Source: Myxococcales bacterium (lineage in GTDB: Bacteria > Myxococcota_A > Polyangia > Nannocystales > Nannocystaceae). Taken from it: DNA of 64,000 bases. Of the stretch, positions 6,987-47,211 are shown piece after piece. Location of the stretch: contig JACKDW010000001.1 in the NCBI GenBank assembly GCA_020633295.1, positions 1,213,828 to 1,277,827 of the forward strand, written 5' to 3'. Below the pieces are notes generated by a model, which saw only the letters and a program-made list of their open reading frames with translations, was not told the DNA's origin and searched no databases. Within the stretch, counting starts at the first letter, position 1, and every line of letters starts with the position of its first letter. The position numbers and the translations under genes were made by a program.

Positions 6987-8393
<1,407 letters not shown>

Positions 8394-8622
8394 GACCGCT
8401 GCGGTGACGCCGAGCGCCGCGCGCGAGCGTGGCAGCGCGCGCGCGAGTCCGCACGACGCCGCGCGCGAGCAGCCGCCGCGCGCGACCACGTCCGCACACG
8501 CCGCGCGCCGCAGCGCGCCCGACAGCGCGCGCCTGGCCCGAAGATATTGTCGCGCGCGTCGCCGGCACGCGCCGAAATCACGGCCAGGACGAGTTCCGGA
8601 ACTGTTATGCTGCGTTGAGCCC

Positions 8623-9381
8623 ATGTCCGAGTTCCAACTCGCCACGCGCACCTCGATCACCGCGTACTATTCGCGGAGTCAGCTGTTGATCATCGCCGAG
8701 GGCAAGCTGCCGACGCCGGATTGGGAGATCGACATCAGCCAGGATCACAACCAGGCGGCGGTCCCGACGTTTCGACTCTCACGTCGCCCGCGGCCGACCG
8801 ACACCGGCGACGAGGAGACCCCGTTTCGCTACGGCGAGATCTTCACGATCGGCCGCCCGCCCGATCACATCATCGTCCGCCACGTCGACGGCGACGACCG
8901 CGTCCCGGTCGAGTTCACCAACCAGGAGCTCGTCGACATCGTGCTCAGCCTCAGCCTCGAGGACAGCCAGAGCGACGTCCTCGAGATCCCGATGCTCGAC
9001 GACATGGGCGACGAGCCGTCCTCCTCGGTCTACGACTCCGGCCTCCACCGCGTCGAGGTCAACGCGTCCTCCCTGGGCGGCGGCGGAGACGTCATGGTCG
9101 GCCAGGCCATCCCGGCGATGGGCGGGATCAACCTCGACCCGAGCCAGAGCGGCTCGGGCATGCTCAACGACCTCAGCGTCCGCTACCGCGAGTCGGTCGG
9201 CTACTCGAACAAGCTCTCCTTCGACGAGGCCTTCGCCGACGCGCTCAAGAAGCTCCCCCCGCCCGCGATGAAGTTCCCCGACATGATGGAGACCGTCGAG
9301 GTCGTGCACATCGGCGGGACCTTCGGCGGGATCGCGGGCTTCCACCGCCTCGAGGTCCGCATCCGCGCGTACCCCGACTGA
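8623..9381 (+). CDS. Hypothetical acidic cytoplasmic protein (no recognisable domain)
   Basis: ATG 8623 ([11 protein letters not shown]...). Protein-like composition with slightly lower-GC codon choice than the neighbours (tat, agt, ttg, ttt). No signal peptide. Confidence 0.55.
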
Positions 9382-28462: not shown

Positions 28463-29424
28463 GCCGCGTACTTGTCGTTCTCGAGACCGCCAACGGCGCG
28501 GTCAAGTCGGCCAGCCTGCCCGGCGTCACCTGCGGTCAGCAGATCGCGGCGAAGGACGGCGGCGAGCTGCACCTCCTCGTGCTCGGCGCCGACGTCTCGG
28601 CCGCTGAGGCGGCCCGGGGCTTCGGCGCCGCCGCCGTGCACACGCTCACCGCCGCCGAGCTCGAGCCCTTCACGGCCGAGGCCTGGGGCGACGCGATCGT
28701 CCACGCCGCGCGCTCGATCGGCGCCACCCACGTGGGCGGGACCGCGACCTCGACCCTCCGCGACGCGCTCCCGCGCGCCGCCGCAGTGCTCGACAGCCCG
28801 CTCGTCAGCGAGGTCGTCGCGGTCAAGGCCGTCGACACCTTCACCCGCCCCATCTCGGCCGGCCGCGCGCTCGTTGACATGAAGCTCAGCGGCCCGGTCG
28901 CGTTCTTCACGGCCCGCGCCACCGAGTTCCCGCCCCCGAACCAGGGCGGCAGCTCCCCGGTCAAGGCCCTCGGCGGCACCCAGCTCAACACCCGCGGCGT
29001 GACCGTGGTCGGCGTGCACAAGACCGAGAGCGCGCGCCCGGCCCTCACCGAGGCCCGCGTCGTCGTCTCCGGCGGACGCGGCATGCGTGAAGGCGCCAAC
29101 TTCGGGGTGCTCGAGGAGCTCACCGACCTCCTCGGCGGAGCGCTCGGCGCCAGCCGAGCCGCCACCGACGCGGGCATGGTCCCGGCCGACCTTCAGGTGG
29201 GCCAGACCGGCAAGATCGTCGCGCCGGAGCTGTACATCGCGGTCGCGATCTCGGGCGCCATCCAGCACCTCGCGGGCATGAAGGGCTCGAAGACGATCGT
29301 CGCCATCAACAAGGACGAGGAGGCCCCGATCTTCCAGATCGCCGACTACGGCCTCGTCGCCAAGTGGGAGGACACGATCCCGCAGCTCACCGCGCTCGTT
29401 CGCCAGCACAAAGCGGCCAACTGA
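28459..29424 (+). CDS. etfA: Electron transfer flavoprotein, alpha subunit
   Basis: ATG 28459 overlapping the etfB stop (ATGA). FAD-binding C-terminal region [37 protein letters not shown]. Confidence 0.9.
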
Positions 29425-29449
29425 CGCGGAGCGCCATGACGCCGCGCGC

Positions 29450-29486
29450 GGCCCCAGGGGTTCCCCTCTGGGGCCGTTCGTAATTC
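29450..29486 (+). terminator. Candidate intrinsic terminator after etfA
   Basis: ggccccagggg tt cccctctggggcc hairpin (29450-29475) followed by gttcgtaattct. Confidence 0.35.
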
Positions 29487-29518
29487 TCCCCCTCCCCGTT
29501 CGATGGTATGGCCCACGC

Positions 29519-30775
29519 GTGTTCTCTCGTCGGACGTCGTGGGACTCGACCCCCGGCGCGCTCGCGCAGGCGATCGCGCGCGCGCGCGCGGACGACACGG
29601 GCGCGCCGCTGCTGGACCTCACCTGCTCGAACCCGACCGCGGTCGGCCTCCACCCCGATCCGAACGAGATCCGCGCGGCGCTCGACCGCGCCTACGACCC
29701 CCGCTACACGCCGGACCCGCTCGGCAGCCTGCGCGCGCGCGAGGCCGTGCTCGACTACTACCGGCGCCGGCACGCGCTCACGCCTGACCTGACGCCCGCG
29801 CGCGTCTGCCTGTGCGCCGGCACGAGCGAGGCCTACGCCAACCTCCTGGCCGTCCTGTGTGACCCCGGGGACGTCGTGCTCGTGCCGCGCCCGGGCTACC
29901 CGCTGCTCGCGTACCTCGCCGATCTCCAGGGCGTCACGCTCGCCCCCTACGCGATCGAGCTCGAGCACGGCGCCTGGCGACTCGACCTCGAAAGCGTCCG
30001 CGAGCAGCTCGCGCGCCCGCGCGAGCGCGCCCGCGTCCGCGCCGTCATCGTCGTCGCGCCCAACAACCCGACCGGCAACTACGTCGACGACCTCGAGCTC
30101 GCCGCGCTCGAGCGACTGTGCCACGAGCGCGAGCTGGCGCTGATCATCGACGAGGTGTTCCACGACTACCCGCTCGACCCCATCGCCGCGCGTCGCGGCT
30201 GCGCGCTCGCGGGCGCGCGCCGCTGCCTGTGCTTCACGCTCTCCGGGCTCTCCAAGGTCGCCGCGCTGCCCCAGCTCAAGCTGTCCTGGCTCGTCGCCCA
30301 CGGCCCGCCCGAGCTGGCGACGGCGGCCATGGGCCGCCTCGAGCTGATCGCCGACAGCTTCTTGAGCGTCGCGAGCCCGGTCCAGCGCGCGCTGCCGGAG
30401 CTGCTGGAGCGCGCTCCCGCGACGCAGGCCCGCGTGCTCGCGCGCACGCGAGACAACCACGCGCACCTGCGCACGTGCTGTCGCCTGGCCGAGAGCGCCG
30501 TGACGCCGCTCGCGGTCGAGGGCGGCTGGACCGCGCTCGTCCGCCTGCCGGCGATCGGGGGGCTCGACGACGCGGGCTGGGTGCTCGATCTGCTGGAGCA
30601 CGCCCGCGTCCTCACGCAGCCCGGGTATCTCTACGATCTCGACGATGGCGGCGGCGCGCGCCCCATGCTCGCGCTCTCGCTGCTGAGTGAACCCAGGCAA
30701 TTCCGCGACGGCCTCACGCGCCTGCTCGCGCGCGTCGCCGCACGCGTCGCCGCAGTGGTAGCCTCGGGCCCATGA
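29519..30775 (+). CDS. Pyridoxal-phosphate-dependent aminotransferase (class I/II fold)
   Basis: GTG 29519. VIVVAPNNPTGNYV and the PLP-lysine region FTLSGLSKVAALPQLKLSW. Confidence 0.8.
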   Translation: MFSRRTSWDSTPGALAQAIARARADDTGAPLLDLTCSNPTAVGLHPDPNEIRAALDRAYDPRYTPDPLGSLRAREAVLDYYRRRHALTPDLTPARVCLCAGTSEAYANLLAVLCDPGDVVLVPRPGYPLLAYLADLQGVTLAPYAIELEHGAWRLDLESVREQLARPRERARVRAVIVVAPNNPTGNYVDDLELAALERLCHERELALIIDEVFHDYPLDPIAARRGCALAGARRCLCFTLSGLSKVAALPQLKLSWLVAHGPPELATAAMGRLELIADSFLSVASPVQRALPELLERAPATQARVLARTRDNHAHLRTCCRLAESAVTPLAVEGGWTALVRLPAIGGLDDAGWVLDLLEHARVLTQPGYLYDLDDGGGARPMLALSLLSEPRQFRDGLTRLLARVAARVAAVVASGP

Positions 30776-31440
30776 GCGACACCCGCCCGCGCGGCATGAC
30801 CCTGCTCAACGACGCGCTCACCGACTACATCGAGGCCCACGCGCTGCCCGAGTCCGAGCTGTTCGCGCGCATGCGTGAAGAGACCTATCGCGACCTCGAC
30901 TCGCCGCAGATGCAAGTCGGCCGCGTCGAGGGCTCGCTCCTGCGCCTGCTCGTGCAGATCAGCGGCGCCCGGCGGGTGCTCGAGATCGGCACCTTCAGCG
31001 GCTACTCCGGGCTCTCGATGGCGATGGCGCTCCCCGACGACGGGCGCGTGATCACCTGCGACGTCGACCCGGTCGCCACGTCGGTGGCGCGCCGCTACTT
31101 CGACGAGAGCGGACACGGGCACAAGATCGAGATCAAGCTCGGGCCCGCGCTCGAGACCATCGCCGCGCTCGCCGAGCAGGGGGCGCGCTTTGACCTCGTG
31201 TTCATCGACGCGGACAAGACCAACTACAGCGAGTACTTCGACGCGGTGCTCCCGCTGCTGCCGATCGGCGGCCTGATCCTCGCCGACAACACGCTGTGGA
31301 GCGGCAAGGTCATCGACCCGCAGGCCGACTCCGACCACGCGCTCGTCGCCTACAACAAGAAGGTCCGCGACGACCCGCGCGTCGAGCAGGTGCTGCTCTC
31401 GGTCCGCGACGGCGTCATGCTCGCGCGCAAGATCGCGTGA
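30772..31440 (+). CDS. Class I SAM-dependent O-methyltransferase (caffeoyl-CoA O-methyltransferase-like)
   Basis: ATG 30772 overlapping the upstream stop (ATGA). SAM-binding VLEIGTFSGYSGLSMA and DLVFIDADKTNY. Confidence 0.85.
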   Translation: MSDTRPRGMTLLNDALTDYIEAHALPESELFARMREETYRDLDSPQMQVGRVEGSLLRLLVQISGARRVLEIGTFSGYSGLSMAMALPDDGRVITCDVDPVATSVARRYFDESGHGHKIEIKLGPALETIAALAEQGARFDLVFIDADKTNYSEYFDAVLPLLPIGGLILADNTLWSGKVIDPQADSDHALVAYNKKVRDDPRVEQVLLSVRDGVMLARKIA

Positions 31441-31687
31441 TATGGGGCATCAGCGTCGCCCGCGCGGCTCGCCGGCCCGCGCTGGCGCGTCGTCGCTTCG
31501 GCATCGTCGAGCCGCGCGCGTTGACAATTTGTCACGCGCGCGGGCACGGACGCGCCAGCCTGCGGCGGAGATCATGCGCTACGCCGGTTTCGCCTTTGAG
31601 TTTGTACGCGCCCCTTGTGGCACCCTGGTTGCATTGGGCATAAACCGTACAGACCGGCGCGTGCCTGCGCGCGTGGGATCGAGCAGC

Positions 31688-33733
31688 ATGCGTCGCGCGC
31701 GACAGCCGAACCAAATCCCCCCCTACCTCGTGGCCGCCGCGGTCGCGGGCCTGATCGGGCTCGTGACCCCGGCGGCGCACGCGGATCCAGGTCAGACCTC
31801 GGTCATCCCGACCGCCGACAACTTCACGATCCGCTACCGGCTGATCGACAAGGACGACAACAACGCGCGCATCCGGCAGATGGACAGCCGGGACATGCGT
31901 CAGTTCTTCAACCAGGCGCGCTGCGTGTGCGGCGAGCTGGTCGAGGCCGAGATCCTGCTGCAGAAGAGCCAGGGCGAGGCCTACGACAACGCGCAGATCT
32001 CGTCCTACGTCGGCACCAACTGCGACACCGCCGAGGCCATGCAGTTCGGCCAGTTCCGGGCCTGCGGCAAGTTCAACTCGGCGAACACCTCGACGTGGTT
32101 GACGAGCTACTTCGCCCGCTTCGCGCCCGTCTGGCTCGTCAACGGCGTCGACCCGAGCAGCGGCGACGACCGCAACCCCAGCACCGCGATCCCCTTCGGC
32201 ACCTGCGGCTCGAGCGAGGGTCAGGGCGGCATCTGGATGTGCGCCGAGAGCAACGGCTCGGCCAACTGCCAGTCCGAAGAGTTCATCATCACCGGCGCGA
32301 CCAACATCAACACGCAGAACACCGAGTCGCCGCAGGGCATCAGCTACGACTTTCGCCCGCCGACGACCGCGCCTGACGAGAGCACGTTCCGCTTCGAGGT
32401 CGGAGACGGCGCCGTGCAGATCAGCTGGTCGCTGCTGACGCCGGGCGACATCAACGGCTACCGGATCCTGTGCGCCGAGTCGGACACCGGCGCGCCGGCG
32501 CTCGCCGACAGCCCGGTCAAGACCCGCGACGAGCTGCGCTTCATTCGCCCCGACGGCACCAACTACTACACGCCCGGCAACCTGTGCCCGTCGGACGTGC
32601 CGGTGTGCGGCAACGGGGTGCTCGAGGGCACCGAGGAGTGCGACGACGGCGACGCCAACAACAACAGCGCCGCCTGCACCTCGCTGTGCACCGTCGCCTA
32701 CTGCGGCGACGGCTTCGTCGAGGCGGGCGCCGAGCAGTGTGACGGCGGCTACGACTCGAACAACCCCGACGGCGCCCTGGTCACCGAGACATGTGACGCG
32801 GCCTGCGCGACCATCAACCGCTGCGGGAACGGGATCATCGACGACGGCGAGGCCTGCGACGACGGCGACCTCAACGGCACCAACATGAGCGAGTGCACCG
32901 CGTTCTGCTCCTCGCCGCTGTGCGGCGGCGGCGGGACCACGACGGGCACCGACACGGACACCGGCACGGACACAGACACGGGCACCACCGGCGACACGGA
33001 CACCGGCACCACCGGCAACCCGCTGATGCCGGGCGCGACCACGGGCGGCACCGGCGACGCCATCCCCTACGAGTGCGACCCCGACGTCGACGCCGACTGC
33101 CTGCCGACCTGCCTGCTCAACGTGTGCGGCGACGGCTTCGTCGGCGGCGACGAGGAGTGCGACGACGGCAACACGCTCAGCGACGACGACTGCATCACCA
33201 TCGATCTCGCGGAGACCGACGAGAGCGCGCAGCGCAAGTGCGTCGCCAACGTGTGCGGCGACGGCTTCCTCGGGCCCACCGAGTCGTGTGATGACGGCGC
33301 GGACAACAGCTTCACCGGCGCCTGCACCCCCGAGTGCCGGGCCAACGACGTGCTCTCCCTGCCGAGCGGCGGCATCGAGAGCCTCGACTGGTCCTACGTC
33401 TGCTCCGAGCACCTGGCCAACACGACCACGAGCCACCGCGTCTCCGGGCTCGACAACAGCAAGACCTACGACATCATGGTGGTCGCCTACGACCTGTTCG
33501 GGAACCCGCTGCCGGTCGCCTACCGCAAGGGCATCACGCCGCGCGAGACCCTCGACTGGTGGGAGCTGTGCGAGCAAGACGGCACCTGCGGGGCCTCCGG
33601 CTTCTGTAACATCAGCGACCGCGTGGAGGGTCGCGAGGGGCGCGGGCGCACCGGGCTCGGCCTGCTCGGCCTGCTCGGCCTGTTCAGTCTGCTCGGCGTG
33701 ACCACGCGGATCCGTCGCCGGAGGACCACGTGA
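31688..33733 (+). CDS. Secreted protein with Myxococcus-type cysteine-rich repeats and a MYXO-CTERM-like sorting tail
   Basis: ATG 31688. Signal peptide ...AAHA|DPG. Repeated CGNGxxExxEECDDG / CGDGFV modules. C-terminus GASGFCNIS...GLGLLGLLGLFSLLGVTTRIRRRRTT (Gly/Cys motif, hydrophobic segment, Arg cluster). Also a Gly/Thr/Asp linker (TGTDTDTGTDTDTGTTGDTDTGTTG). Confidence 0.8.
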   Translation: MRRARQPNQIPPYLVAAAVAGLIGLVTPAAHADPGQTSVIPTADNFTIRYRLIDKDDNNARIRQMDSRDMRQFFNQARCVCGELVEAEILLQKSQGEAYDNAQISSYVGTNCDTAEAMQFGQFRACGKFNSANTSTWLTSYFARFAPVWLVNGVDPSSGDDRNPSTAIPFGTCGSSEGQGGIWMCAESNGSANCQSEEFIITGATNINTQNTESPQGISYDFRPPTTAPDESTFRFEVGDGAVQISWSLLTPGDINGYRILCAESDTGAPALADSPVKTRDELRFIRPDGTNYYTPGNLCPSDVPVCGNGVLEGTEECDDGDANNNSAACTSLCTVAYCGDGFVEAGAEQCDGGYDSNNPDGALVTETCDAACATINRCGNGIIDDGEACDDGDLNGTNMSECTAFCSSPLCGGGGTTTGTDTDTGTDTDTGTTGDTDTGTTGNPLMPGATTGGTGDAIPYECDPDVDADCLPTCLLNVCGDGFVGGDEECDDGNTLSDDDCITIDLAETDESAQRKCVANVCGDGFLGPTESCDDGADNSFTGACTPECRANDVLSLPSGGIESLDWSYVCSEHLANTTTSHRVSGLDNSKTYDIMVVAYDLFGNPLPVAYRKGITPRETLDWWELCEQDGTCGASGFCNISDRVEGREGRGRTGLGLLGLLGLFSLLGVTTRIRRRRTT

Positions 33734-35868: not shown

Positions 35869-37590
35869 ATGCACATGCGCCCCCTCCAATCCGGGAGGCG
35901 GGCGGCGGTCGAGCATGTTCAAGAGCTCGTCGATCCGCGCGTCGAGCCCCACGACGCCAACCAGCTCGAGCTCAAGCTCGGCTACGTCATCAAGCCCGGC
36001 GAGCGCCGCCAGCGCTACCTCATCGAGACCTACATGTTCATCCCCAAGACGCTGGGGATCGATCGACACAGCTACAACGCGAGCCGCTTCTACGCCGACA
36101 CCGCCGCGTTCCTGCGCCTGCGCACGCCCCACGTCTCGCTCGAGGCGCTGGCGACCGTCGGCAGGGCCAACGCGTGGTTCGAACAGCTGCACTCCGGGCT
36201 CGACGCGCGCGCGCGCATGCGTGAGCGCGACATCAGGCGACTCGCGCGGCGCGTGAAGATCCTCGGCTGCGTGTACCGCTCGGCGCTCCGCGACGACGCG
36301 CGCTCGCTCCGGCAGCAGCTCACGAGCGCGCCGGCGCCCGATCCCCTCGCCGAGGGCCGCATGCAGGAGACGACCGCGCGGCGGATCCGTCGCTTCGTCC
36401 GCAACATCGAGCGCGCGCTCCGGCGCCTGCGCGCCGTCGACGGGCGCTGCCTCGCGCGCGGCGACGGCGACCTGCTCTGCGACTCGTGGCGCGCGGTCGA
36501 CGAGTACAGCGCGCTGATCGCCGAGGACGTGTGCAAGGACGTCATCGTCGCGCTCGACGATCGGGCGTCGCGCTCGCCCGTCGTCCACCCCGACCTCCTC
36601 GACGCGCGCGCGCGGCTCGTGCGGGCCGCCGTCGACGCCCACCAGTATCGCCGCAGCCGCGGCTACCGCAGCCAGCTCATCGCCGGCGAGAGCAACGAGG
36701 AGCTGCCCCACTGGCGGCGGACGATCAAGCGCATCGTGTTCAGCGCGCTGTACCTCGACGTGCGCCACGAGGAGGTCGGGCGGCTCGCGTATGACCTCGT
36801 GGGCGCGGTCGCGGCGATGATCGCGATGGCGTTCGCCGTCACCGTCAGCCTGCTCGCGCAGCTCGAGCTCGACATCTTCAGCGGCGCCTTCGTCGCGATC
36901 ATGATCGTCTCCTACATGATCAAGGATCGGCTCAAGGACTGGGGCAAGCGCTACGGCGGCCGGCACCTCGGGCGGCTGCTCCCGGACACGCTCGTGCGCG
37001 TGCACGACAACGAGGGCGACCGCGCGCTCGGGCAGTGCCGCGAGTCCTTCTACATGCTGCAGGTCGACGAGGTCGACGACGAGATCAGGCGCTCACGGCA
37101 GTCGCGTCGCGCGAGCTCGATCGAGCGGCTCGGCAAGCCCGAGGTCGTCATCCGCTACTCCAAGGACGTGACGCTCCACTCGCAGCCGCTGCGCGACGAG
37201 CTCGCCGGCCTCGAGGGGCTGCACGACATCATCCGCTTCAACCTCGGGCACCTGCGCGACCGCATGGACGCGCCGCGCGAGGACCACCCGCTCATCGACC
37301 CGAACACGGGGGAGATCCAGATCATCCCCTGCGCGCGCGTCTATCACATCAACATCATCCTGCGCATGACCGTCGGGCGGGGCAAGCACGCGCGCAGCCG
37401 GGTCGAGCGCGTGCGCGTCGTCATGGACCAGCGCGGGATCAAGCGCGTCGAGTTCCTCGACCGCCACGGCAAGCAGCTGGTCTGCAACCACGAGGGCGGC
37501 GCGCCGTTCCAGGACATTACGAACCTCTCGCTCCCCGCGATCCCGCGCGCGCAGCTCGAGGACTCCGGCGCGGCCTCGGCGGCGCGCTGA
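35869..37590 (+). CDS. Hypothetical protein with two central transmembrane helices
   Basis: ATG 35869 (MHMRP...). Hydrophobic segments VGAVAAMIAMAFAVTVSLLAQL and FSGAFVAIMIVSYMI. No recognisable catalytic motif. Immediately upstream of the ACAD/ACP/PKS operon. Confidence 0.55.
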   Translation: MHMRPLQSGRRAAVEHVQELVDPRVEPHDANQLELKLGYVIKPGERRQRYLIETYMFIPKTLGIDRHSYNASRFYADTAAFLRLRTPHVSLEALATVGRANAWFEQLHSGLDARARMRERDIRRLARRVKILGCVYRSALRDDARSLRQQLTSAPAPDPLAEGRMQETTARRIRRFVRNIERALRRLRAVDGRCLARGDGDLLCDSWRAVDEYSALIAEDVCKDVIVALDDRASRSPVVHPDLLDARARLVRAAVDAHQYRRSRGYRSQLIAGESNEELPHWRRTIKRIVFSALYLDVRHEEVGRLAYDLVGAVAAMIAMAFAVTVSLLAQLELDIFSGAFVAIMIVSYMIKDRLKDWGKRYGGRHLGRLLPDTLVRVHDNEGDRALGQCRESFYMLQVDEVDDEIRRSRQSRRASSIERLGKPEVVIRYSKDVTLHSQPLRDELAGLEGLHDIIRFNLGHLRDRMDAPREDHPLIDPNTGEIQIIPCARVYHINIILRMTVGRGKHARSRVERVRVVMDQRGIKRVEFLDRHGKQLVCNHEGGAPFQDITNLSLPAIPRAQLEDSGAASAAR

Positions 37591-37774: not shown

Positions 37775-38914
37775 ATGGACTTCAGCTGGACAGACGAGCA
37801 ATCGACGCTCCACGAGCAGGCGCTCGAGTTCGCGCGCGCCCGGCTGCGCGGGCGCGACGACGACGACGACCGCAGCTTCGCGCGCGCGACCTGGCGCGCC
37901 CTCGGCGACTTCGGGGCGCTCGGCGCCTGCCTGCCCCGCGCCCACGGCGGGCTCGGGCTCGACGCGCTGACCACCGCGCGCGTCGTCGAGGGGCTCGGTC
38001 ACGGCGCGCGCGAGCTCGGCCTCGTGTTCTCGGCCTGCGCCCACCTGCTCGCCTGCGCCGTCCCCGTCGCCGAGCACGGGAGCGCCCAGCTGCAGCGCGA
38101 GGTGCTGCCCGCGCTCGCCTCGGGCGAGCAGATCGGCGCCAACGCGATCACCGAGGCCGGCGCCGGCTCTGACGTGTTCTCGCTGCGGACCACGGCCCGC
38201 CGCGACGGCGACGACTACGTGCTCGACGGCGCGAAGAGCTACGTCACCAACGGCCCCGTCGCCGATCAGCTCCTCGTCTACGCCTCCACCAACCCCGCGC
38301 ACGGCTACCTGGGCATCAGCGCGTTCCTCGTCGACGCGCGCCAGGCCGGCGTCACGCGCGGCGAGCCGTTCCACAAGACCGGCCTCGGGAGCTCGCCGAT
38401 CTGCCCTGTGTACCTCCGAGACGTGCGCGTGCCCGGCTACCGCCGGCTCGGCGCCGAGGGCGGCGGCGCGGCGATCTTCCAGCGCTCGATGGCGTGGGAG
38501 CGCGCCTGCCTGTTCGCGGCCTTCGTCGGCGCGATGGCGCGTGACCTCGAGCTCTGCCTCGAGCACGCGCGCGGCCGCCAGCAGTTCCGCAAGCCGATCG
38601 GGCGCCACCAAGCGGTCGCGCACCGCCTCGCGGACATGAAGCTCCGCCTCGAGGGCGCGCGCCTGCTGCTGTACCGCGCGTGCTGGCGGCTCGACCGCGG
38701 CGAGCTCGCGGCGCTCGACATCAGCCTCGCCAAGCTCGCGGTCAGCGAGGCCGCGGTCCAGAGCGGGCTCGACGTCATCCGCCTCCACGGCGGCCTCGGC
38801 TACATGTCCGAGACCGGCCTCGACAACGGCCTGCGCGACGCGCTCGGCAGCCTGATCTTCTCGGGGACCTCCGAGATCCAGCGCGACCTGATCGCGCGCG
38901 GCCTCGGGCTCTAG
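37775..38914 (+). CDS. Acyl-CoA dehydrogenase family protein
   Basis: ATG 37775. ACAD N-terminal region FSWTDEQSTLHEQALEFAR, middle-domain ANAITEAGAGSDVFSLRTTARRDGDDYVLDGAKSYVTNGP, and C-terminal helical domain with QQFRKPIGRHQAVAHRLADM. Confidence 0.9.
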   Translation: MDFSWTDEQSTLHEQALEFARARLRGRDDDDDRSFARATWRALGDFGALGACLPRAHGGLGLDALTTARVVEGLGHGARELGLVFSACAHLLACAVPVAEHGSAQLQREVLPALASGEQIGANAITEAGAGSDVFSLRTTARRDGDDYVLDGAKSYVTNGPVADQLLVYASTNPAHGYLGISAFLVDARQAGVTRGEPFHKTGLGSSPICPVYLRDVRVPGYRRLGAEGGGAAIFQRSMAWERACLFAAFVGAMARDLELCLEHARGRQQFRKPIGRHQAVAHRLADMKLRLEGARLLLYRACWRLDRGELAALDISLAKLAVSEAAVQSGLDVIRLHGGLGYMSETGLDNGLRDALGSLIFSGTSEIQRDLIARGLGL

Positions 38915-38975
38915 CGCCCGCCCGACGCGCGACCCGACGCGCGCCCCCGATCGGCGCGCCGCGAGCTCCCGCGGC

Positions 38976-39000
38976 GCGCCGCGCCGCGCCGCGCCGCGCC
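38976..39000. repeat. (GCGCC)5 pentanucleotide simple-sequence repeat in the ACAD-ACP intergenic region
   Basis: Direct reading of 38976-39000. Confidence 0.85.
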
Positions 39001-39090
39001 GCCGACGGCGCGACGCGACGCGCCACGAATTTTCGTCACCGATCCGCCGCCGGATCGAACACGCACCCCTGACACACCGCTGAGTTCACG

Positions 39091-39399
39091 ATGCAAACCA
39101 TCAACCACACCCCCGCCCTCTCGTCCACGACCGCCGACCGCTTCCTCGAGCCGCTCTCGCGCTTCATCATCCGCGAGTTCCTCCACGGCGACGCGAGCCT
39201 CACGCCCGAGACCCCGCTGCTCGAGTGGGGCGTGATCGACTCGATGACCATCATCGACGTCATCGTGTTCATCTCGGAGCAGCTCGGCGTGCGCGTGCCC
39301 GACGAGGAGATCCGCCCCGACAACTTCGCCACGCTGCGCGCGCTGAGCCGCATGCTCGCCGCGCTCGACGACGCCGCGCGCGTCCGGGGGGCGGCGTGA
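39091..39399 (+). CDS. Acyl carrier protein (discrete)
   Basis: ATG 39091. Phosphopantetheine-attachment motif LEWGVIDSMTIIDVIVFISEQLGV (DS-M/L core). 102 aa. Confidence 0.8.
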   Translation: MQTINHTPALSSTTADRFLEPLSRFIIREFLHGDASLTPETPLLEWGVIDSMTIIDVIVFISEQLGVRVPDEEIRPDNFATLRALSRMLAALDDAARVRGAA

Positions 39400-40472
39400 G
39401 CCGCGTCCACCTCTCGAGCCTCGTGACCGTCGCGGGCGCCCACACGGTGCCGCAGGCGGCGCTCGGCGAGTCCATGCGCCACCAGCTCGCGCGCCTCCCC
39501 GAGGCCGCGGGCGTGGCCCAGATGATCACCTTCGTCTACGCCCGCTCGGACATCCGCGCGCGTCACCTCGAGCTCGCGCCCGACGAGCTCGAGCGGCGCG
39601 ACGACTGGTACGCGCTCACCAACGAGGCGACCTTCCGCCTCGCCTGCCGGGCGCTCGACGCGGTGCTCGCGGCCGGCGAGCGCGCCGAGACGCTCGACGG
39701 CCTCGTCGTCGTCAGCTCCAGCTACGCCGGCTTCCCCGCGCTGAGCCGGCGCCTGCAGGACCGCTACCGGCTCCCGACCGCCGCGCGCTGCCTCGACCTC
39801 ACCGGCCTCGGCTGCGGCGGCTCGACCCAGGGGCTGGAGCTCGCCGACAGCCTCGTGTCCCGTGGGACATGTAAAAAAGTCGCGCTGATCTGCGTCGACG
39901 TCATGGGCACCTTCGGCGCCGCGCGTCGGCACCTGCGCGCGCCGACGATGTCGCAGCTCGTCGCCCACTGCCTCGCGTCGGACGGCGCCGCGGCGCTCGT
40001 CGTCGAGCGCGAGCCCTCGCCGCGCTGCGTCCTCAGCTACGCGCGCGCGCGCCTGCGCACGCGCCTGTGGCCCGGGACGCTCGCGCTCAACGACCTCACC
40101 GCGGACGCCGACAACCAGCCGCTCATCGCGGTCGGCAAGGACATCCGCGCGCGCCTGCTGCCCGAGGTCGCGCCGCTGCTCGAGCAGCTCGAGCCCGGCC
40201 TGCTCGCGATGCACCCCGGCGGCAAGGCGCTCATGCAGCTGCTGCGCGCGCGCTGCCCCGACCACGCCGACGCGGCCGAGCTCGCCATGGCGACGCTGCG
40301 CGAGCACGGCAACCTCGGCGCCCCCTCGGCGCTGTGGGTCCTGCGGCGCGCGCTGAGCTCCGAGCTCGCGGGCGCGCTCGATCGCGGCGGTCGCTGCCAC
40401 CTGTTCGCGCTCGCGCCCGGCATCGTCACGACCCTGTTGACCCTGGAGGGAGCGCGCAGCCATGCCGCGTGA
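39396..40472 (+). CDS. Type III polyketide synthase (chalcone/stilbene synthase family)
   Basis: GTG 39396 overlapping the ACP stop (GTGA). Active-site Cys context LDLTGLGCGGSTQGLELADSL, His region LAMHPGGKALMQ, and Asn region GNLGAPSALWVL (corresponding to GNMSSA). Confidence 0.8.
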   Translation: MSRVHLSSLVTVAGAHTVPQAALGESMRHQLARLPEAAGVAQMITFVYARSDIRARHLELAPDELERRDDWYALTNEATFRLACRALDAVLAAGERAETLDGLVVVSSSYAGFPALSRRLQDRYRLPTAARCLDLTGLGCGGSTQGLELADSLVSRGTCKKVALICVDVMGTFGAARRHLRAPTMSQLVAHCLASDGAAALVVEREPSPRCVLSYARARLRTRLWPGTLALNDLTADADNQPLIAVGKDIRARLLPEVAPLLEQLEPGLLAMHPGGKALMQLLRARCPDHADAAELAMATLREHGNLGAPSALWVLRRALSSELAGALDRGGRCHLFALAPGIVTTLLTLEGARSHAA

Positions 40473-42668
40473 TCACCACGTCGTCCCCGTCCCCGCCCCC
40501 GCCCCCGCCCCCATCCCCGAGCTCGACGCGCGGGTCCAGGCCGCGCGCGCGGCCCAGCGAGCCTGGGCGCGCGCCGGCGTCGCGCGCCGGCTCGAGGTCC
40601 TGCAGGCCGCCGGCCGCCGCCTCGCGCGGCGCGGCGCGGCGCGCTCGACGAGGCGCTCGCCGCCGACGGCCTCTCGCGCAAGCTCGCCGGCCCCTACGGC
40701 GACTGGGTGTGCGCGCAGGCGGAGCCCGCCCGGCTCGCGCGCTACGCCGCCCAGCTCGTGCGCGAAGAGCCAGGTCCCCGCGGGCCCGAGCTGCTCGTGC
40801 GCCGCCCCGACGGGCTCGTGCTGCTCGTGCCGCCCGGCAACTCGCCGACCATCAACGCCTCGTGCCTGTTCTCGATCCTGCTGCCCGGCAACGCGGTGAT
40901 CGCCCGGGCGCCCGCCCGCGACCGCGGCGTGCGGCTGCTCGTCGAGGACGTGCTCGGCGGCGCCCTGGAGGAGGCCGGGATGGACCGCGCGCTCGCGCAG
41001 GTCCTGACGATCGGCACGCGCCCCTTCCTCGACGCGCTGCTCGGGCGCCCCGAGCCGCGCACGCTCGTGTTCTTCGGCAACACCCGCGTCGGCGAGGCGG
41101 TCGCCGAGCGCTGCCGCGCCGCCGGCAAGAAGGTGGTGCTCGAGCTCGAGGGCAGCGACCACATGATGATCTGGCGCGACGCGCCGCTCGAGCGCGTCGT
41201 CGACAGCGCGCTGCGGGCCTTCGACTTCTCGACCCAGCCCTGCGCCGTGCCCAAGCACCTGCTCGTCCACGGCGCGCGCTTCGACGAGCTCGTCGCGGCG
41301 CTCGAGCGCCGGCTCCCCGAGGTCTCCGTCACGATCGCGCGCGACCCCGAGCGCGGCGTGCTCGCGCCCGTCGCCCGCCGCGAGGACTACTTCGCGTGCC
41401 TCGACGAGGTCGCGCCCGTCGCCGAGCTGCGCGGCGGCGGCCCGATCGACGCCGACGGAGAGCCTGACCCTGAGGGCATCTTCATCGCGCCGACGCTCGC
41501 GCTGCTCGACGCGCAGACCGTGCTCACGCGCCCGCTCCGGCTGTTCGAGGACGAGATCAGCTTCCCGCTGCTCCCGATCGTCCGCTGCGACGGCGCGCGC
41601 GACGAGGACGCGCTCGCGGCCATGCTGAAGATCGTCGGCGGCAGCCCCTTCGGCCTGCGCGCGTCGCTCTGGAGCGAAGACGCGGAGGTCATCGAGCGCT
41701 GCGTCGAGGAGCTCGCGGAGGTCGGGCTGCTCGTCGTCAACGGCGATCACTGCGAGGTGCCCGGCTACGCCTCGCCGTGGGGCGGCCCCGGACGCAGCGG
41801 CGGCCCCGGGGGCGAGAGTCACCTGTTCTGGGAGAAGACCAGCCGCCTGCAGGCGATCACGCTCGACCCCGCGTCGCGTCGCGCCGCGCTCGCGGCCCTC
41901 GGCGTACCAGACCCATCAGACATGTCCCGATCGCCCGCGACGCCCGCGCCGGACGCCGGCGAGCCGCTCACGCTCACGCTGGAGGACGGCGTCGCCACGC
42001 TCACGCTGCGTCGCCCCGCGCGTCACAACGCGGTCAACCCGGCCATGCAGCGCGCGCTGCTCGCGGCCGCGCGCGAGCTGCAGCGACGTCAGCACGAGCT
42101 GCGCTGCGTCGTCATCCGCGGCGCCGGTCGCTCGTTCTGCAGCGGCGCCGATCTGCACGCGCTGCGCGAGCTGGACCCGGACGCCGCGCGCCGCTTCATG
42201 CTCGACGCGACCTGGGCGTTCCGAGCGCTCGAGCGCCTGCCCGCGCCCGTGATCGCGGCGGTCCACGGCTACTGCCTCGGCGGCGGCTTCGAGCTGCTGC
42301 TGCACTGCGACGAGGTCATCGCGGCCGAGAGCGCGCGCCTCGGGCTGCCCGAGGCCAACCTCGGGCTCGTGCCGACCACCGGCGCGATCGCGCGGCTCAT
42401 CGCCAGCGTCGGAGAGCTGCGCGCGCGCGAGCTCGTGATGTCCGCCCGCGCGCTGACGGCCGCCGAGGCCCAGCAGTTCGGGCTCCTCACCCTCGTGGTC
42501 CCGGACGCGGCGCTCGACGACGCCGTGGCCGAGCGCGTGCGCGCGCGCCTCGCCCAGCCCCGCGAGGGGCTCGCCGCGGTCAAGCGCCTGTTCGCCAGCG
42601 GCCGCCGCCACGCGGGCGCGTGGATCCACGAGCTCGAGACCTTTGATGCCCTCACCCGCGGATCGTGA
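40462..42668 (+). CDS. Aldehyde dehydrogenase-like domain fused to an enoyl-CoA hydratase/isomerase (crotonase) domain, interrupted by an apparent frameshift at 40625-40644
   Basis: ATG 40462, with GGAGGGA 9 nt upstream. The ALDH-like N-terminus (ELDARVQAARAAQRAWARAGVARRLEVLQAAGRRLARRG) is in frame 1. The remainder, from about 40640, is in frame 0: ALDEALAADG..., PPGNSPTINASC, catalytic Cys FDFSTQPCAVPKHLLV, then crotonase VVIRGAGRSFCSGADL...AAVHGYCLGGGFELLLHCD. Deleting one CGCGG unit joins the two frames cleanly. Confidence 0.6.
40625..40639. repeat. (CGCGG)3 pentanucleotide tract at the ALDH-ECH frameshift site
   Basis: Direct reading: cgcgg cgcgg cgcgg cgcgc. Confidence 0.8.
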
Positions 42669-43501
42669 TCATGACCTCCGAAACCTCCTCCCCGACCTCC
42701 TCCCCGACCTCCTCCGCAACGCCCTCCTCGACCTCCGACGACGCGGGCGCCCCGACCCGCCTCGCCGGCGAGGTCGCGCTCATCACCGGGGGCTCCCGCG
42801 GGATCGGGCGGGCCATCGCCGTCGAGCTCGGGCGGCTCGGCATGCGCGTCGCGATCAACTACCGCGCCGACGAGGCCGCCGCCGCCGAGGCCGCCGCGCG
42901 CACGCGGGCCGCCGGCGCCCCCGAGGTCCTGCTGCTGCAGGGTGACGTCGCGCGCCCCGAGGTCAACCGCGCGCTCGTCGAGGCCGCGCGCGCGCGGCTC
43001 GGGCCGGTCGACGTGCTCATCAACAACGCCGGCATCCAGCGCGCCCAGCTCGCGCACAAGATGTCCGACGACGACTGGCGCGACGTCATGGCCGTCAACC
43101 TCGACAGCCTGTTCTACTCGGCGCGCGCCGTGCTCCCGGAGATGCTCGAGCGGCGCCGCGGACAGATCCTGCACGTCGCGAGCGCCTCCGCGTTCATGGG
43201 CCAGCGCGGCGCCTGCAGCTACGTCGCCTCCAAGCACGCGGTGATCGGCCTGACGCGCGCGCTCGCGGTCGAGACCGCCGGGCGCGGGATCCGGGTCAAC
43301 GCGATCGCGCCCGGGCTCACGCGCACCGACCTGCTCGCCGACCTCCGCGCGCCGCAGCTCGAGGCGCTGCGCGGCATGGTACCCATGCGTCGGCTCGCGG
43401 CGCCCGAGGAGGTCGCGCGCGCCGCTCGCTTCGTCCTGACCGAAGCGACATACAGCACCGGGAGCGTGCTCCACGTCGGCGGCGGGGTCGTGATGGCGTG
43501 A
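42665..43501 (+). CDS. SDR-family oxidoreductase (3-oxoacyl-ACP reductase FabG-like)
   Basis: GTG 42665 (GTGA overlap with the upstream stop) or ATG 42671. Ser/Thr/Pro-rich N-terminus, then the glycine-rich NAD(P)-binding site VALITGGSRGIGRAIA and a catalytic YxxxK (SYVASKHAV). Confidence 0.85.
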   Translation: MIMTSETSSPTSSPTSSATPSSTSDDAGAPTRLAGEVALITGGSRGIGRAIAVELGRLGMRVAINYRADEAAAAEAAARTRAAGAPEVLLLQGDVARPEVNRALVEAARARLGPVDVLINNAGIQRAQLAHKMSDDDWRDVMAVNLDSLFYSARAVLPEMLERRRGQILHVASASAFMGQRGACSYVASKHAVIGLTRALAVETAGRGIRVNAIAPGLTRTDLLADLRAPQLEALRGMVPMRRLAAPEEVARAARFVLTEATYSTGSVLHVGGGVVMA

Positions 43502-43515
43502 CCCCCGTGCCGCGC

Positions 43516-43881
43516 TCAGCGATCGCGCAGCTCGAGCGCGGACAGCACCGCGAGCACGGCGTGCACCGCCACCGTGATCCAGACGACCGGGGACGTGGTC
43601 CCCGCGAGGCCCGCGCTCGTCTGCACCACCGTCTCGGCCGCGTTGAACGCCGCCGAGGCGACGAGCAGCGCGCGCACCACCTCGGGGGTGTCGAAGTCGC
43701 GCAGCATCAGGTACACCGCGCCGTAGCCGAGCAGCGTCGAGGCGTAGCCGCGCGCGGCGAGCTGACCGCCGACGTCGAGCTCGATCCCGAACAACAGGAA
43801 CACCCACGCGGGCGCGATCAGCCCGAGCACGGCGAAGGGGAGCGTCAGCGCGGCGTTGGCGATGAAGACGGTGCGGGCCAT
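43516..43881 (-). CDS. Small membrane protein
   Basis: ATG (complement) 43879-43881. About four hydrophobic segments (FIANAALTLPFAVLGLIAPAWVFLLF, AVYLML, LLVASAAF, VVWITVAVHAVLAVL). Confidence 0.45.
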   Translation of the reverse strand: MARTVFIANAALTLPFAVLGLIAPAWVFLLFGIELDVGGQLAARGYASTLLGYGAVYLMLRDFDTPEVVRALLVASAAFNAAETVVQTSAGLAGTTSPVVWITVAVHAVLAVLSALELRDR

Positions 43882-44004
43882 GGCGAACTCCAGGAGCGTG
43901 TTGACCGACCCGCAGTCTGCCCGTTCGCGGCGCGCTCCAAAAGCGCCTCGACCGCGCGCGATCACGACGAGCGCGACCTCGTCACCGCGCGCCCGCGTGC
44001 GCGT

Positions 44005-47211
<3,207 letters not shown>

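Follow-up and report, generated by a model that had tools for sequence, protein, structure and literature searches.

Polyketide synthases (PKSs) of type III are textbook coenzyme A (CoA)-dependent enzymes; few take carrier-bound starters, and the starters of those few are fatty acyl groups. The stretch of DNA analyzed here (the window; 64 kb of contig JACKDW010000001.1 from a Myxococcales bacterium, with a G+C content of ~72%) contains, at 37775 to 43501, an operon in which the gene of a divergent type III PKS overlaps the stop codon of a carrier protein gene, and the question is what this carrier may deliver to the PKS. The operon is probably an orthologue, minus two genes, of a myxobacterial cassette that makes a pyrrole-2-carboxyl starter, bound to a peptidyl carrier protein (PCP), for the type III PKS, whose CoA-bound product would be processed by a short-chain dehydrogenase/reductase (SDR), a crotonase domain and an aldehyde dehydrogenase (ALDH).

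The dehydrogenase, the carrier protein and the type III PKS

The first gene of the operon (37775 to 38914, + strand) encodes a protein of 379 amino acids (aa) with the acyl-CoA dehydrogenase fold, and its matches in Pfam, NCBIfam and the PDB mark it as a putative prolyl-S-carrier-protein dehydrogenase of the Bmp3/PigA/RedW/PltE type. In NCBIfam, it scored 463 bits with PigA (cutoff of 500) and 430 bits with the L-prolyl-PCP dehydrogenase RedW, and the next family followed at 220 bits. Among solved structures, it matched 6CXT chain B (Bmp3) with 409 bits, the L-prolyl-PCP dehydrogenase 5ZW0 with 348 bits and the prolyl-acyl carrier protein (ACP) dehydrogenase AnaB (4irn) with 326 bits, whereas ordinary acyl-CoA dehydrogenases reached at most 223 bits; 6CXT was confirmed to be the dehydrogenase-carrier complex Bmp3:Bmp1. 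A first-pass annotation, made from the letters of the window alone, had named the protein an acyl-CoA dehydrogenase, which is right for the fold but not for the nearest kin. Judged by these matches, the enzyme is a member of the prolyl-carrier-protein dehydrogenase clade (Bmp3/PigA/RedW/AnaB) and not a generic acyl-CoA dehydrogenase. The second gene (39091 to 39399, + strand) encodes a stand-alone (type II) PCP of 102 aa with the phosphopantetheine serine in the motif GVIDSM and a Pfam PP-binding score of 32.7 bits. Its best matches in the PDB were the carrier domain of Bmp1 (6cxt_A), PltL and PigG, all of which are prolyl or pyrrolyl carriers, and it is 46 to 47% identical to the carriers of two related loci described below (L003 and L005). 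The 102-aa carrier thus classifies as a pyrrole-type PCP and not as a fatty acid ACP.

The third gene (39396 to 40472, + strand) encodes the divergent type III PKS (358 aa), with Cys140, His273 and Asn306 as the predicted catalytic triad. Its chalcone synthase (CHS)-like signal in Pfam was weak: FAE1_CUT1_RppA (37.8 bits) and Chal_sti_synt_N (28.4 bits) were both just over the cutoff of 27, ACP_syn_III scored 27.6 bits and Chal_sti_synt_C, with 20.1 bits, stayed under the cutoff. The best NCBIfam match, DpgA, was weak as well (40 bits, with a cutoff of 425). Relatives of the PKS make up ~78 sequence clusters at 44 to 59% identity, after which there is a drop to ordinary type III PKSs with 27 to 30% identity and at most 72 bits; this drop argues for a clade separate from ordinary type III PKSs. 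The named members belong to Enhygromyxa, Pseudenhygromyxa, Nannocystaceae, Polyangiaceae and Kofleriaceae, the exceptions being one Bdellovibrionales and one Cellvibrionaceae metagenome-assembled genome (MAG). Cys140, His273 and Asn306 were invariant in 41 aligned members of the clade, and they aligned with the motifs LGCVAG, HPGG and GNLSSAS of Pks11 and with the triad of Gcs. The best solved match of the window PKS in a single-sequence search was Gcs (3V7I; 43 bits, compared to 38 bits for Pks11), an acyl-ACP-using type III PKS. The protein is not an ordinary FabH, one of the outcomes by which the first-pass annotation would have been overturned: it belongs to the CHS-like family as a divergent member, and among the best 60 solved chains listed, the clade profile found type III PKSs only (~84 bits).

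Five open reading frames (ORFs) on the same strand make up the operon (37775 to 38914, 39091 to 39399, 39396 to 40472, 40473/40707 to 42668 and 42665 to 43501), and their third-position G+C content is high, as in real genes. The hidden Markov model (HMM) scan with Pfam, a check that the first-pass annotation had itself proposed, returned Acyl-CoA_dh N/M/C, PP-binding, the weak CHS-like signal, Aldedh plus ECH_1 in a single frame, and adh_short; the five co-directional genes and all five domain assignments of that annotation were therefore correct. It had also described each of the last four genes as overlapping its predecessor, and this is true of three junctions but not of the first, since the dehydrogenase and carrier genes are 176 nucleotides (nt) apart. 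The PCP and PKS genes share a GTGA stop/start overlap at 39396 to 39399, the PKS and ALDH genes overlap by 11 nt at 40462 to 40472 (ATG-N5-TGA and not, as had been read, ATGN7TGA), and the ALDH-crotonase and SDR genes share another GTGA at 42665 to 42668. Thus, PCP, PKS, ALDH-crotonase and SDR are linked via stop/start overlaps, and PCP and PKS are translationally coupled in the window. The spacer between dehydrogenase and PCP (38915 to 39090, 176 nt) is GC rich and contains the (GCGCC)5 tract at 38976 to 39000 that had been pointed out upstream of the carrier gene (chance expectation, 0.01 matches).

The cassette at related loci and the predicted pathway

The contigs of five members of the PKS clade were looked up, one genome per species was scanned with the clade profile and seven reference proteins were mapped onto the loci. 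These loci contain a cassette with the order prolyl-PCP dehydrogenase, PltF-like adenylase, PCP, Bmp2-like halogenase, type III PKS, ALDH-crotonase and SDR; the seven genes, in the same order or rearranged, were found at ~15 of 19 genome loci and almost only in Myxococcota. For the AMP-binding enzyme of the related loci, the best match is PltF, a proline adenylase (467 bits), and in most of them its 1.5-kb gene lies where the window has the 176-nt spacer. The halogenase most resembles Bmp2, which brominates pyrrole (389 bits versus 154 bits for PltA); its gene is present at most related loci, mostly immediately 5' of the PKS gene. In a complete Myxococcota genome of 6.87 Mb, all seven overlap in a single operon, and the flanks are free of other biosynthetic genes. 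Compared to the nearest locus, L003, the window proteins were identical to 70% (dehydrogenase), 46% (carrier), 59% (PKS), 62% (ALDH-crotonase, which in L003 is a 719-aa fusion) and 67% (SDR), and by these identities the window operon is orthologous to the cassette. Carrier and PKS genes elsewhere are either adjacent or have the halogenase gene alone in between. The earlier suggestion of a type III PKS with a dedicated, translationally coupled carrier therefore gained support from the adjacency or near adjacency of the two genes at most related loci, from the conserved triad and from Gcs as the best match. The gene context predicts a carrier-bound starter for this PKS, which would depart from the rule for type III enzymes.

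The cassette varies between loci. A complete Nannocystaceae genome, that of ST9 (L005), has PCP, halogenase and PKS genes and no dehydrogenase or adenylase gene within 10 kb. The PCP is part of a Bmp1-like PCP-thioesterase fusion in L003 and lies next to a thioesterase in L023; a search with the thioesterase domain of L003 detected no thioesterase at most related loci. ALDH and crotonase are split into two proteins in two Polyangiaceae loci. Some relatives have the gene of an ABBA aromatic prenyltransferase (PTase_Orf2), which overlaps that of the ALDH or is fused to it (P0133, 779 aa; L013, 14919 to 15851; L015, 13167 to 15407), and in these relatives, ALDH and crotonase are separate proteins; the association is a hint that the substrate of the ALDH is aromatic and undergoes prenylation as well. 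A second, more distant flavin halogenase-like gene, with 30 to 33% identity to the first, lies after the PKS or SDR gene in Enhygromyxa and one other locus (L009, 11066 to 12283; L010, 11053 to 12291; L017, 13280 to 14488), and its product may act on a different ring.

The last two genes of the operon encode the enzymes that would act after the PKS. In the ALDH-crotonase of the window, the motifs of the catalytic Cys (STQPC179), the general-base Glu (LE146LEG) and the Rossmann glycines (FFGNxxxG) are present, and they are conserved among fusions, but the N-terminal ~60 residues of the window copy are in another frame (see below). In an alignment of 30 fusions, E146 (the general base, equivalent to Glu268) and E283 (equivalent to Glu399) were invariant and the catalytic C179 was found in at least 90%. 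The ALDH domain scored at most 109 bits with any curated ALDH family, and the nearest families are semialdehyde dehydrogenases, which are hydrolytic. The reductive release step that had been suggested for this domain is possible, but its nearest kin and the conserved general-base glutamate are those of hydrolytic enzymes. In the crotonase domain, the catalytic glutamates GGGxE529 and PE549 were invariant in the same 30 fusions, as would be expected for a true hydratase/dehydratase; the domain matched NCBIfam DpgD with 134 bits, below the family cutoff. The SDR (42665 to 43501, + strand; 278 aa) is FabG like, with TGGSRGIG and YxxxK (YVASK) motifs, a Pfam adh_short score of 202 bits and an NCBIfam score of 229 bits as 3-oxoacyl-ACP reductase, under the cutoff of 298. 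A 12-nt tandem repeat of 4.5 copies (42683 to 42736) gives the SDR an N-terminal, low-complexity TSSP-rich extension, which is absent from its closest homologue (that of L003, aligned from 42761 onward).

The sequences show which families the proteins belong to, that the loci are orthologous, how the genes are ordered and that catalytic residues are conserved; the hand-off from PCP to PKS, how often the starter is extended, when and how SDR, crotonase and ALDH act, and what is made are inferred. Proline would be adenylated and loaded on the PCP, and prolyl-S-PCP would be oxidized to pyrrole-2-carboxyl-S-PCP by the Bmp3/PigA-type flavoenzyme; where a Bmp2-type halogenase is present, it would halogenate the pyrrolyl group. 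The acyl group would then be transferred to Cys140 of the PKS and extended by decarboxylative condensation with malonyl-CoA. At most loci, where a thioesterase is not detectable, the PKS is the sole candidate to unload the PCP. Since type III PKS intermediates are CoA thioesters, a released β-ketoacyl-CoA could be reduced by the FabG-like SDR and dehydrated by the crotonase domain, and the fused ALDH might carry out a final aldehyde/acid conversion. The window operon itself, if it has a product, would make a nonhalogenated one and would need an adenylase encoded elsewhere. It is quite possible, if somewhat less likely than not, that the same logic applies throughout the clade: a type III PKS primed directly by a nonribosomal peptide synthetase (NRPS)-type carrier bearing (halo)pyrrole-2-carboxyl, with ALDH-crotonase and SDR as tailoring enzymes, would give small halopyrrole polyketides that are widespread in marine and soil Myxococcota, and the window would be a halogenase-less variant with its adenylase in trans.

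Several observations speak against a pyrrole-primed pathway. A proline adenylase was not found in the 64-kb window, neither by tblastn with two adenylases of the family nor as an AMP-binding domain in Pfam scans of the larger ORFs, which covered most of those that passed a codon-composition filter. Neither did the window give a significant tblastn match or a Pfam hit for a halogenase, and the ALDH gene of the window copy is frameshifted. The match of the PKS to Gcs is weak, with only 43 bits and a small margin over the 38 bits of Pks11. The ALDH step is the weakest one, because the domain resembles aldehyde-oxidizing enzymes and the route has no obvious source of an aldehyde. Moreover, the ABBA prenyltransferases next to the ALDH hint at an aromatic (phenolic) product, for which several extensions rather than one would be needed. 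Finally, full-text literature searches turned up no paper that describes a pyrrole-primed type III PKS system, its product or the biochemistry of any of its members.

The first-pass annotation had seen in the operon a candidate lipid or polyketide pathway that shares some parts with alkylresorcinol/alkylpyrone systems. In a fatty acid-like pathway along these lines, acyl-CoA dehydrogenase, ACP, a ketoacyl-ACP synthase III or type III PKS, ketoreductase and crotonase would build or modify an acyl chain that the ALDH releases reductively, the product being of the alkylresorcinol, alkylpyrone or lipid aldehyde type. Formally, the five domains do add up to a cycle of condensation, ketoreduction, dehydration and enoyl reduction plus an aldehyde step, and some source databases label relatives of the PKS "alkylresorcinol/alkylpyrone synthase." However, the dehydrogenase is far closer to prolyl-carrier-protein dehydrogenases than to acyl-CoA dehydrogenases, the carrier matches Bmp1, PltL and PigG and not fatty acid ACPs, and the PKS is just 27 to 30% identical to ordinary type III PKSs. 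The orthologous loci encode a proline adenylase similar to PltF and a pyrrole halogenase similar to Bmp2, and neither they nor the window contain a fatty-acyl-AMP ligase or a gene like those of fatty acid synthases. The lipid framing is contradicted by these assignments and is very improbable. The PKS-like protein might also be a noncondensing acyltransferase, which would only take the pyrrolyl group off the PCP and pass it to a nucleophile or, for processing by the other enzymes, to CoA. This would fit the great divergence of the family from characterized type III PKSs, but the His and Asn responsible for malonyl decarboxylation, which would be superfluous in a mere transferase, are invariant in 41 of 41 sequences; we consider such a function very improbable.

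Still improbable, but to a lesser degree, is a pathway like that of dihydroxyphenylglycine, in which the PKS uses malonyl-CoA only, the crotonase aids dehydration or aromatization (as DpgB and DpgD do with DpgA) to give a phenolic acyl-CoA, and (halo)pyrrolyl-S-PCP is made in parallel, to be coupled to this product or, as in the Bmp system, set free on its own. It would account for DpgA as the best NCBIfam match of the PKS and for the 134 bits of the crotonase domain with DpgD; the Bmp1-like thioesterases of two loci could release halopyrroles, and a phenolic intermediate is suggested by the prenyltransferases, some of which form fusions with the ALDH. Against it, the score with DpgA is far under the cutoff, no coupling enzyme such as a cytochrome P450 is conserved in the cassette, and pyrrolyl-S-PCP would be left without an exit at the majority of loci, those in which a thioesterase was not detected. 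The translational coupling of PCP and PKS in the window, and their adjacency elsewhere with at most the halogenase gene between them, also argue against two parallel branches.

The frame break and the missing genes of the window copy

The ALDH-crotonase had been described as one open polypeptide, and a frameshift within it had been missed. In three-frame translations, the frame opened by ATG 40462 encodes a plausible ALDH N terminus (…LDARVQAARAAQRAWARAGVARRLEVLQAAGRRLARR), followed by nonsense and a stop at 40899, and the remainder of the ALDH (…ALDEALAADGLSRKLAGPYGDWV…) is read in a different frame. The N-terminal part covers ~57 codons (40462 to 40643, + strand), corresponds to positions 30 to 67 of the Pfam Aldedh profile and aligned in tblastn with residues 4 to 42 of the ALDH of L006 and residues 9 to 48 of the ALDH-crotonase of L003. 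The second part (40626 to 42668, + strand) comprises the rest of the ALDH (to ~41900; Aldedh, 122 bits) and the crotonase/enoyl-CoA hydratase domain (~41960 to 42668; ECH_1, 151 bits). With three homologues as queries, residues up to ~42 to 48 mapped to 40498 to 40632 in one frame and residues from ~39 to 52 on mapped to another frame starting at 40626 to 40644. The frame thus switches between 40632 and 40626, and one added base restores the 20-residue spacing of all three homologues. The site lies in a (GCGCG)4 tract at 40624 to 40643 (Tandem Repeats Finder: period of 5, 4.0 copies, 100% match), which has a net loss of 1 nt relative to the homologues. In the public annotation, the identical protein (P0087; "MAG: Myxococcales bacterium") starts at GTG 40707 and has 653 aa; full-length ALDH-crotonase fusions mostly have ~700 to 760 aa.

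Two independent short-read contigs of the same population in Logan (SRR12358675 and SRR12358676) matched the window with 99.9% identity and one mismatch each. One of them spans 38969, beside the (GCGCC)5 tract, to 40615, just before (GCGCG)4, and the other stops at 40564; both matching contigs thus stop before the frame break and carry no evidence across it, and look-ups of the exact dehydrogenase and ALDH-crotonase products gave no match. Since the short-read contigs end at the repeats, the region around 40624 to 40643 appears hard to sequence, and a single frame break in the very tract where they end may be an assembly error; it may also be a true lesion. GC-only pentanucleotide tracts in the window (40624 to 40643 and 38969 to 39024) seem to break Illumina assemblies. 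Such tracts may also be hot spots for indels, as in the frame break, and for deletions, as in the missing adenylase gene.

Two of the three features that define a pyrrole module, the dehydrogenase and the stand-alone PCP, are present in the window, and the third, the adenylase, is missing, as is the accessory halogenase; it is the sole locus examined in which dehydrogenase, PCP and PKS occur together while both adenylase and halogenase are absent. Two weak halogenase matches at ~7000 to 7100 were traced to the flavin adenine dinucleotide (FAD)-binding motif of a pyridine-nucleotide disulfide oxidoreductase, and a search for an adenylase relic in the 176-nt spacer returned low-complexity noise only. 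On the source contig (1,438,650 bp), no adenylase of this type was among the best 120 matches of what is a huge enzyme family. The window copy therefore either depends on an adenylase encoded elsewhere, with a nonhalogenated product, or is decaying.

If the operon was a dead remnant that has lost adenylase and halogenase by deletion, has acquired a frameshift in the ALDH gene and no longer makes anything, the assignment to the family would still be valid, since only the present function is concerned. The absence of both genes from all 64 kb, a GC-rich repeat spacer exactly at the position of the relatives' adenylase gene, the frameshift and the isolation of the operon amid housekeeping genes would all be in line with decay. 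A second eroded cassette is also at hand in the Polyangiaceae MAG locus L016: at 8185 to 8830, the adenylase frame ends after ~97 residues and is followed, in another frame, by the last ~50 residues of the thioesterase, with no PCP, as if all between residue 97 of the adenylase and the C terminus of the thioesterase had been deleted; this locus is an eroded copy or a misassembly. However, four genes of the window operon are intact, with a third-position G+C content of 0.94 to 0.98 and all catalytic motifs, despite only 59 to 70% identity to the nearest relative, and a long decay should have left more lesions. The only frame break, moreover, lies where the short-read contigs end and might not be real, and supply in trans seems to occur, given L005 with its PCP, halogenase and PKS genes but no dehydrogenase or adenylase nearby. 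We therefore regard a dead remnant as less likely than not. The pathway family is conserved but uncharacterized, and its member in the window is reduced and may be decaying.

Known systems and the setting of the operon

A system with similar parts is that of Bmp1 to Bmp4 from Pseudoalteromonas (tetrabromopyrrole/pentabromopseudilin): Bmp3 is the nearest match of the window dehydrogenase, the Bmp1 carrier domain that of the carrier and Bmp2 that of the relatives' halogenase, and L003 and L023 even share the association of PCP and thioesterase. Unlike the Bmp system, the window has no adenylase, halogenase or thioesterase and the cassette has no P450 coupling enzyme, but it adds the type III PKS, the ALDH-crotonase fusion and the SDR, none of which is known from the bmp cluster. 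Pyoluteorin biosynthesis offers the same sequence of events, in that proline on a stand-alone PCP becomes pyrrolyl-S-PCP, which is halogenated and used as a polyketide starter for malonyl extension (PltF, PltL, PltE and PltA, followed by the type I PKS PltB/PltC), and the relatives' adenylase matches PltF best and the carrier matches PltL. There, however, extension is by a modular type I PKS, whereas the cassette would use a free-standing type III PKS on CoA-bound intermediates, with discrete SDR and crotonase. In the 4-methoxy-2,2'-bipyrrole-5-carbaldehyde (MBC) branch of prodigiosin biosynthesis (PigI/PigG/PigA, followed by PigJ/PigH), pyrrolyl-S-PCP is handed to a ketosynthase and condensed with a malonyl unit. 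PigA is the best NCBIfam match of the dehydrogenase and PigG is among the matches of the carrier, but the condensing enzyme of the cassette is a type III PKS and not a PigJ-type ketosynthase, and no PigH-like ACP/aminotransferase is coupled to it.

With regard to the condensing enzyme, Gcs of Streptomyces coelicolor is a parallel, being a type III PKS with a carrier-bound starter and the best solved match of the window PKS. ArsB/ArsC and FtpA of Myxococcus are likewise carrier-protein-dependent type III PKSs. These enzymes take fatty acyl-ACP, however, whereas the starter of the cassette would be an amino acid-derived heteroaromatic acyl-PCP, and the similarity to Gcs is low and the clade appears to be separate. 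The alkylresorcinol/alkylpyrone systems (ArsABCD, SrsA and FtpA to FtpE) differ further in that no gene for the supply of a fatty acyl starter lies by the PKS gene in the window or its relatives, where the AMP-binding enzyme is PltF like. DpgA to DpgD (3,5-dihydroxyphenylglycine) share with the cassette a type III PKS with crotonase-fold partners on CoA-bound intermediates, in addition to the weak NCBIfam matches, but lack carrier protein, pyrrole module and ALDH fusion, and the window proteins score far below the cutoffs of these families.

In reviews on marine myxobacteria, Enhygromyxa salina SWB007 is said to have an unpublished "PKS III cluster adjacent to a halogenase," tentatively linked to salimabromide, and shared orphan PKS III clusters are mentioned as well. 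One locus of the clade (L020/L026) belongs to E. salina SWB007 and may be this halogenase-adjacent cluster. If a pyrrole-primed type III PKS is indeed what the cassette encodes, it would combine type III PKSs with the pyrrole modules of type II NRPSs in a new way, and the family would lead to small metabolites of myxobacteria, many of them halogenated, that form a class not yet explored; in either case, ALDH and crotonase are, as a fusion, an unstudied enzyme pair. Since two core genes are absent and the frame is broken, the window locus is less valuable for such studies than its intact relatives, and the seven-gene operon of the 6.87-Mb Myxococcota genome and the E. salina loci are the better objects.

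The operon lies amid housekeeping genes, and the remaining large ORFs of the window encode, according to Pfam, only housekeeping proteins (seryl-, tryptophanyl/tyrosyl- and methionyl-tRNA synthetases, D-Ala-D-Ala ligase, HtpG and RNase R), Ser/Thr kinases and hypothetical proteins. Directly upstream, at 35869 to 37590, is the gene of a predicted 573-aa protein without a match in Pfam or NCBIfam. The first-pass annotation was right that it adjoins the operon, but it is not a member of the system, as no counterpart was found at any related locus. On the downstream side, a + strand ORF at 43498 to 47211 seemed to continue the operon, but its 5' end is an artifact; a 149-aa membrane-like ORF is found on the minus strand at 43516 to 43965, and the gene at 44029 to 47211 (+ strand) encodes a Ser/Thr kinase with tetratricopeptide (TPR) repeats, its start being near 44029. 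Neither this kinase nor the membrane protein downstream of the operon was accepted as a member of the system, because they are not kept at related loci and the kinase matches are generic. Kinase or sensor genes also lie beside the cassette in relatives, namely, SpoIIE and Pkinase genes in L027 and, in both L005 and L026, the gene of a Pkinase-AAA_16-GAF-PAS-HisKA protein of 1845 to 1903 aa; such neighbors may be a coincidence, myxobacteria being rich in kinases.

Approximately 7 kb upstream of the operon, at 29282 to 31440, a gene with the class I/II aminotransferase fold (29282 to 30775) overlaps a Methyltransf_3 O-methyltransferase gene (30691 to 31440), and the pair recalls PigH and PigF. 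The two were rejected as PigH/PigF-like partners on account of their distance, the unrelated genes in between and their absence from related loci. At 31277 to 33733, the window encodes a large protein of the secreted type, which has cysteine-rich repeats (DUF4215) and gives a weak signal for fibronectin-III.

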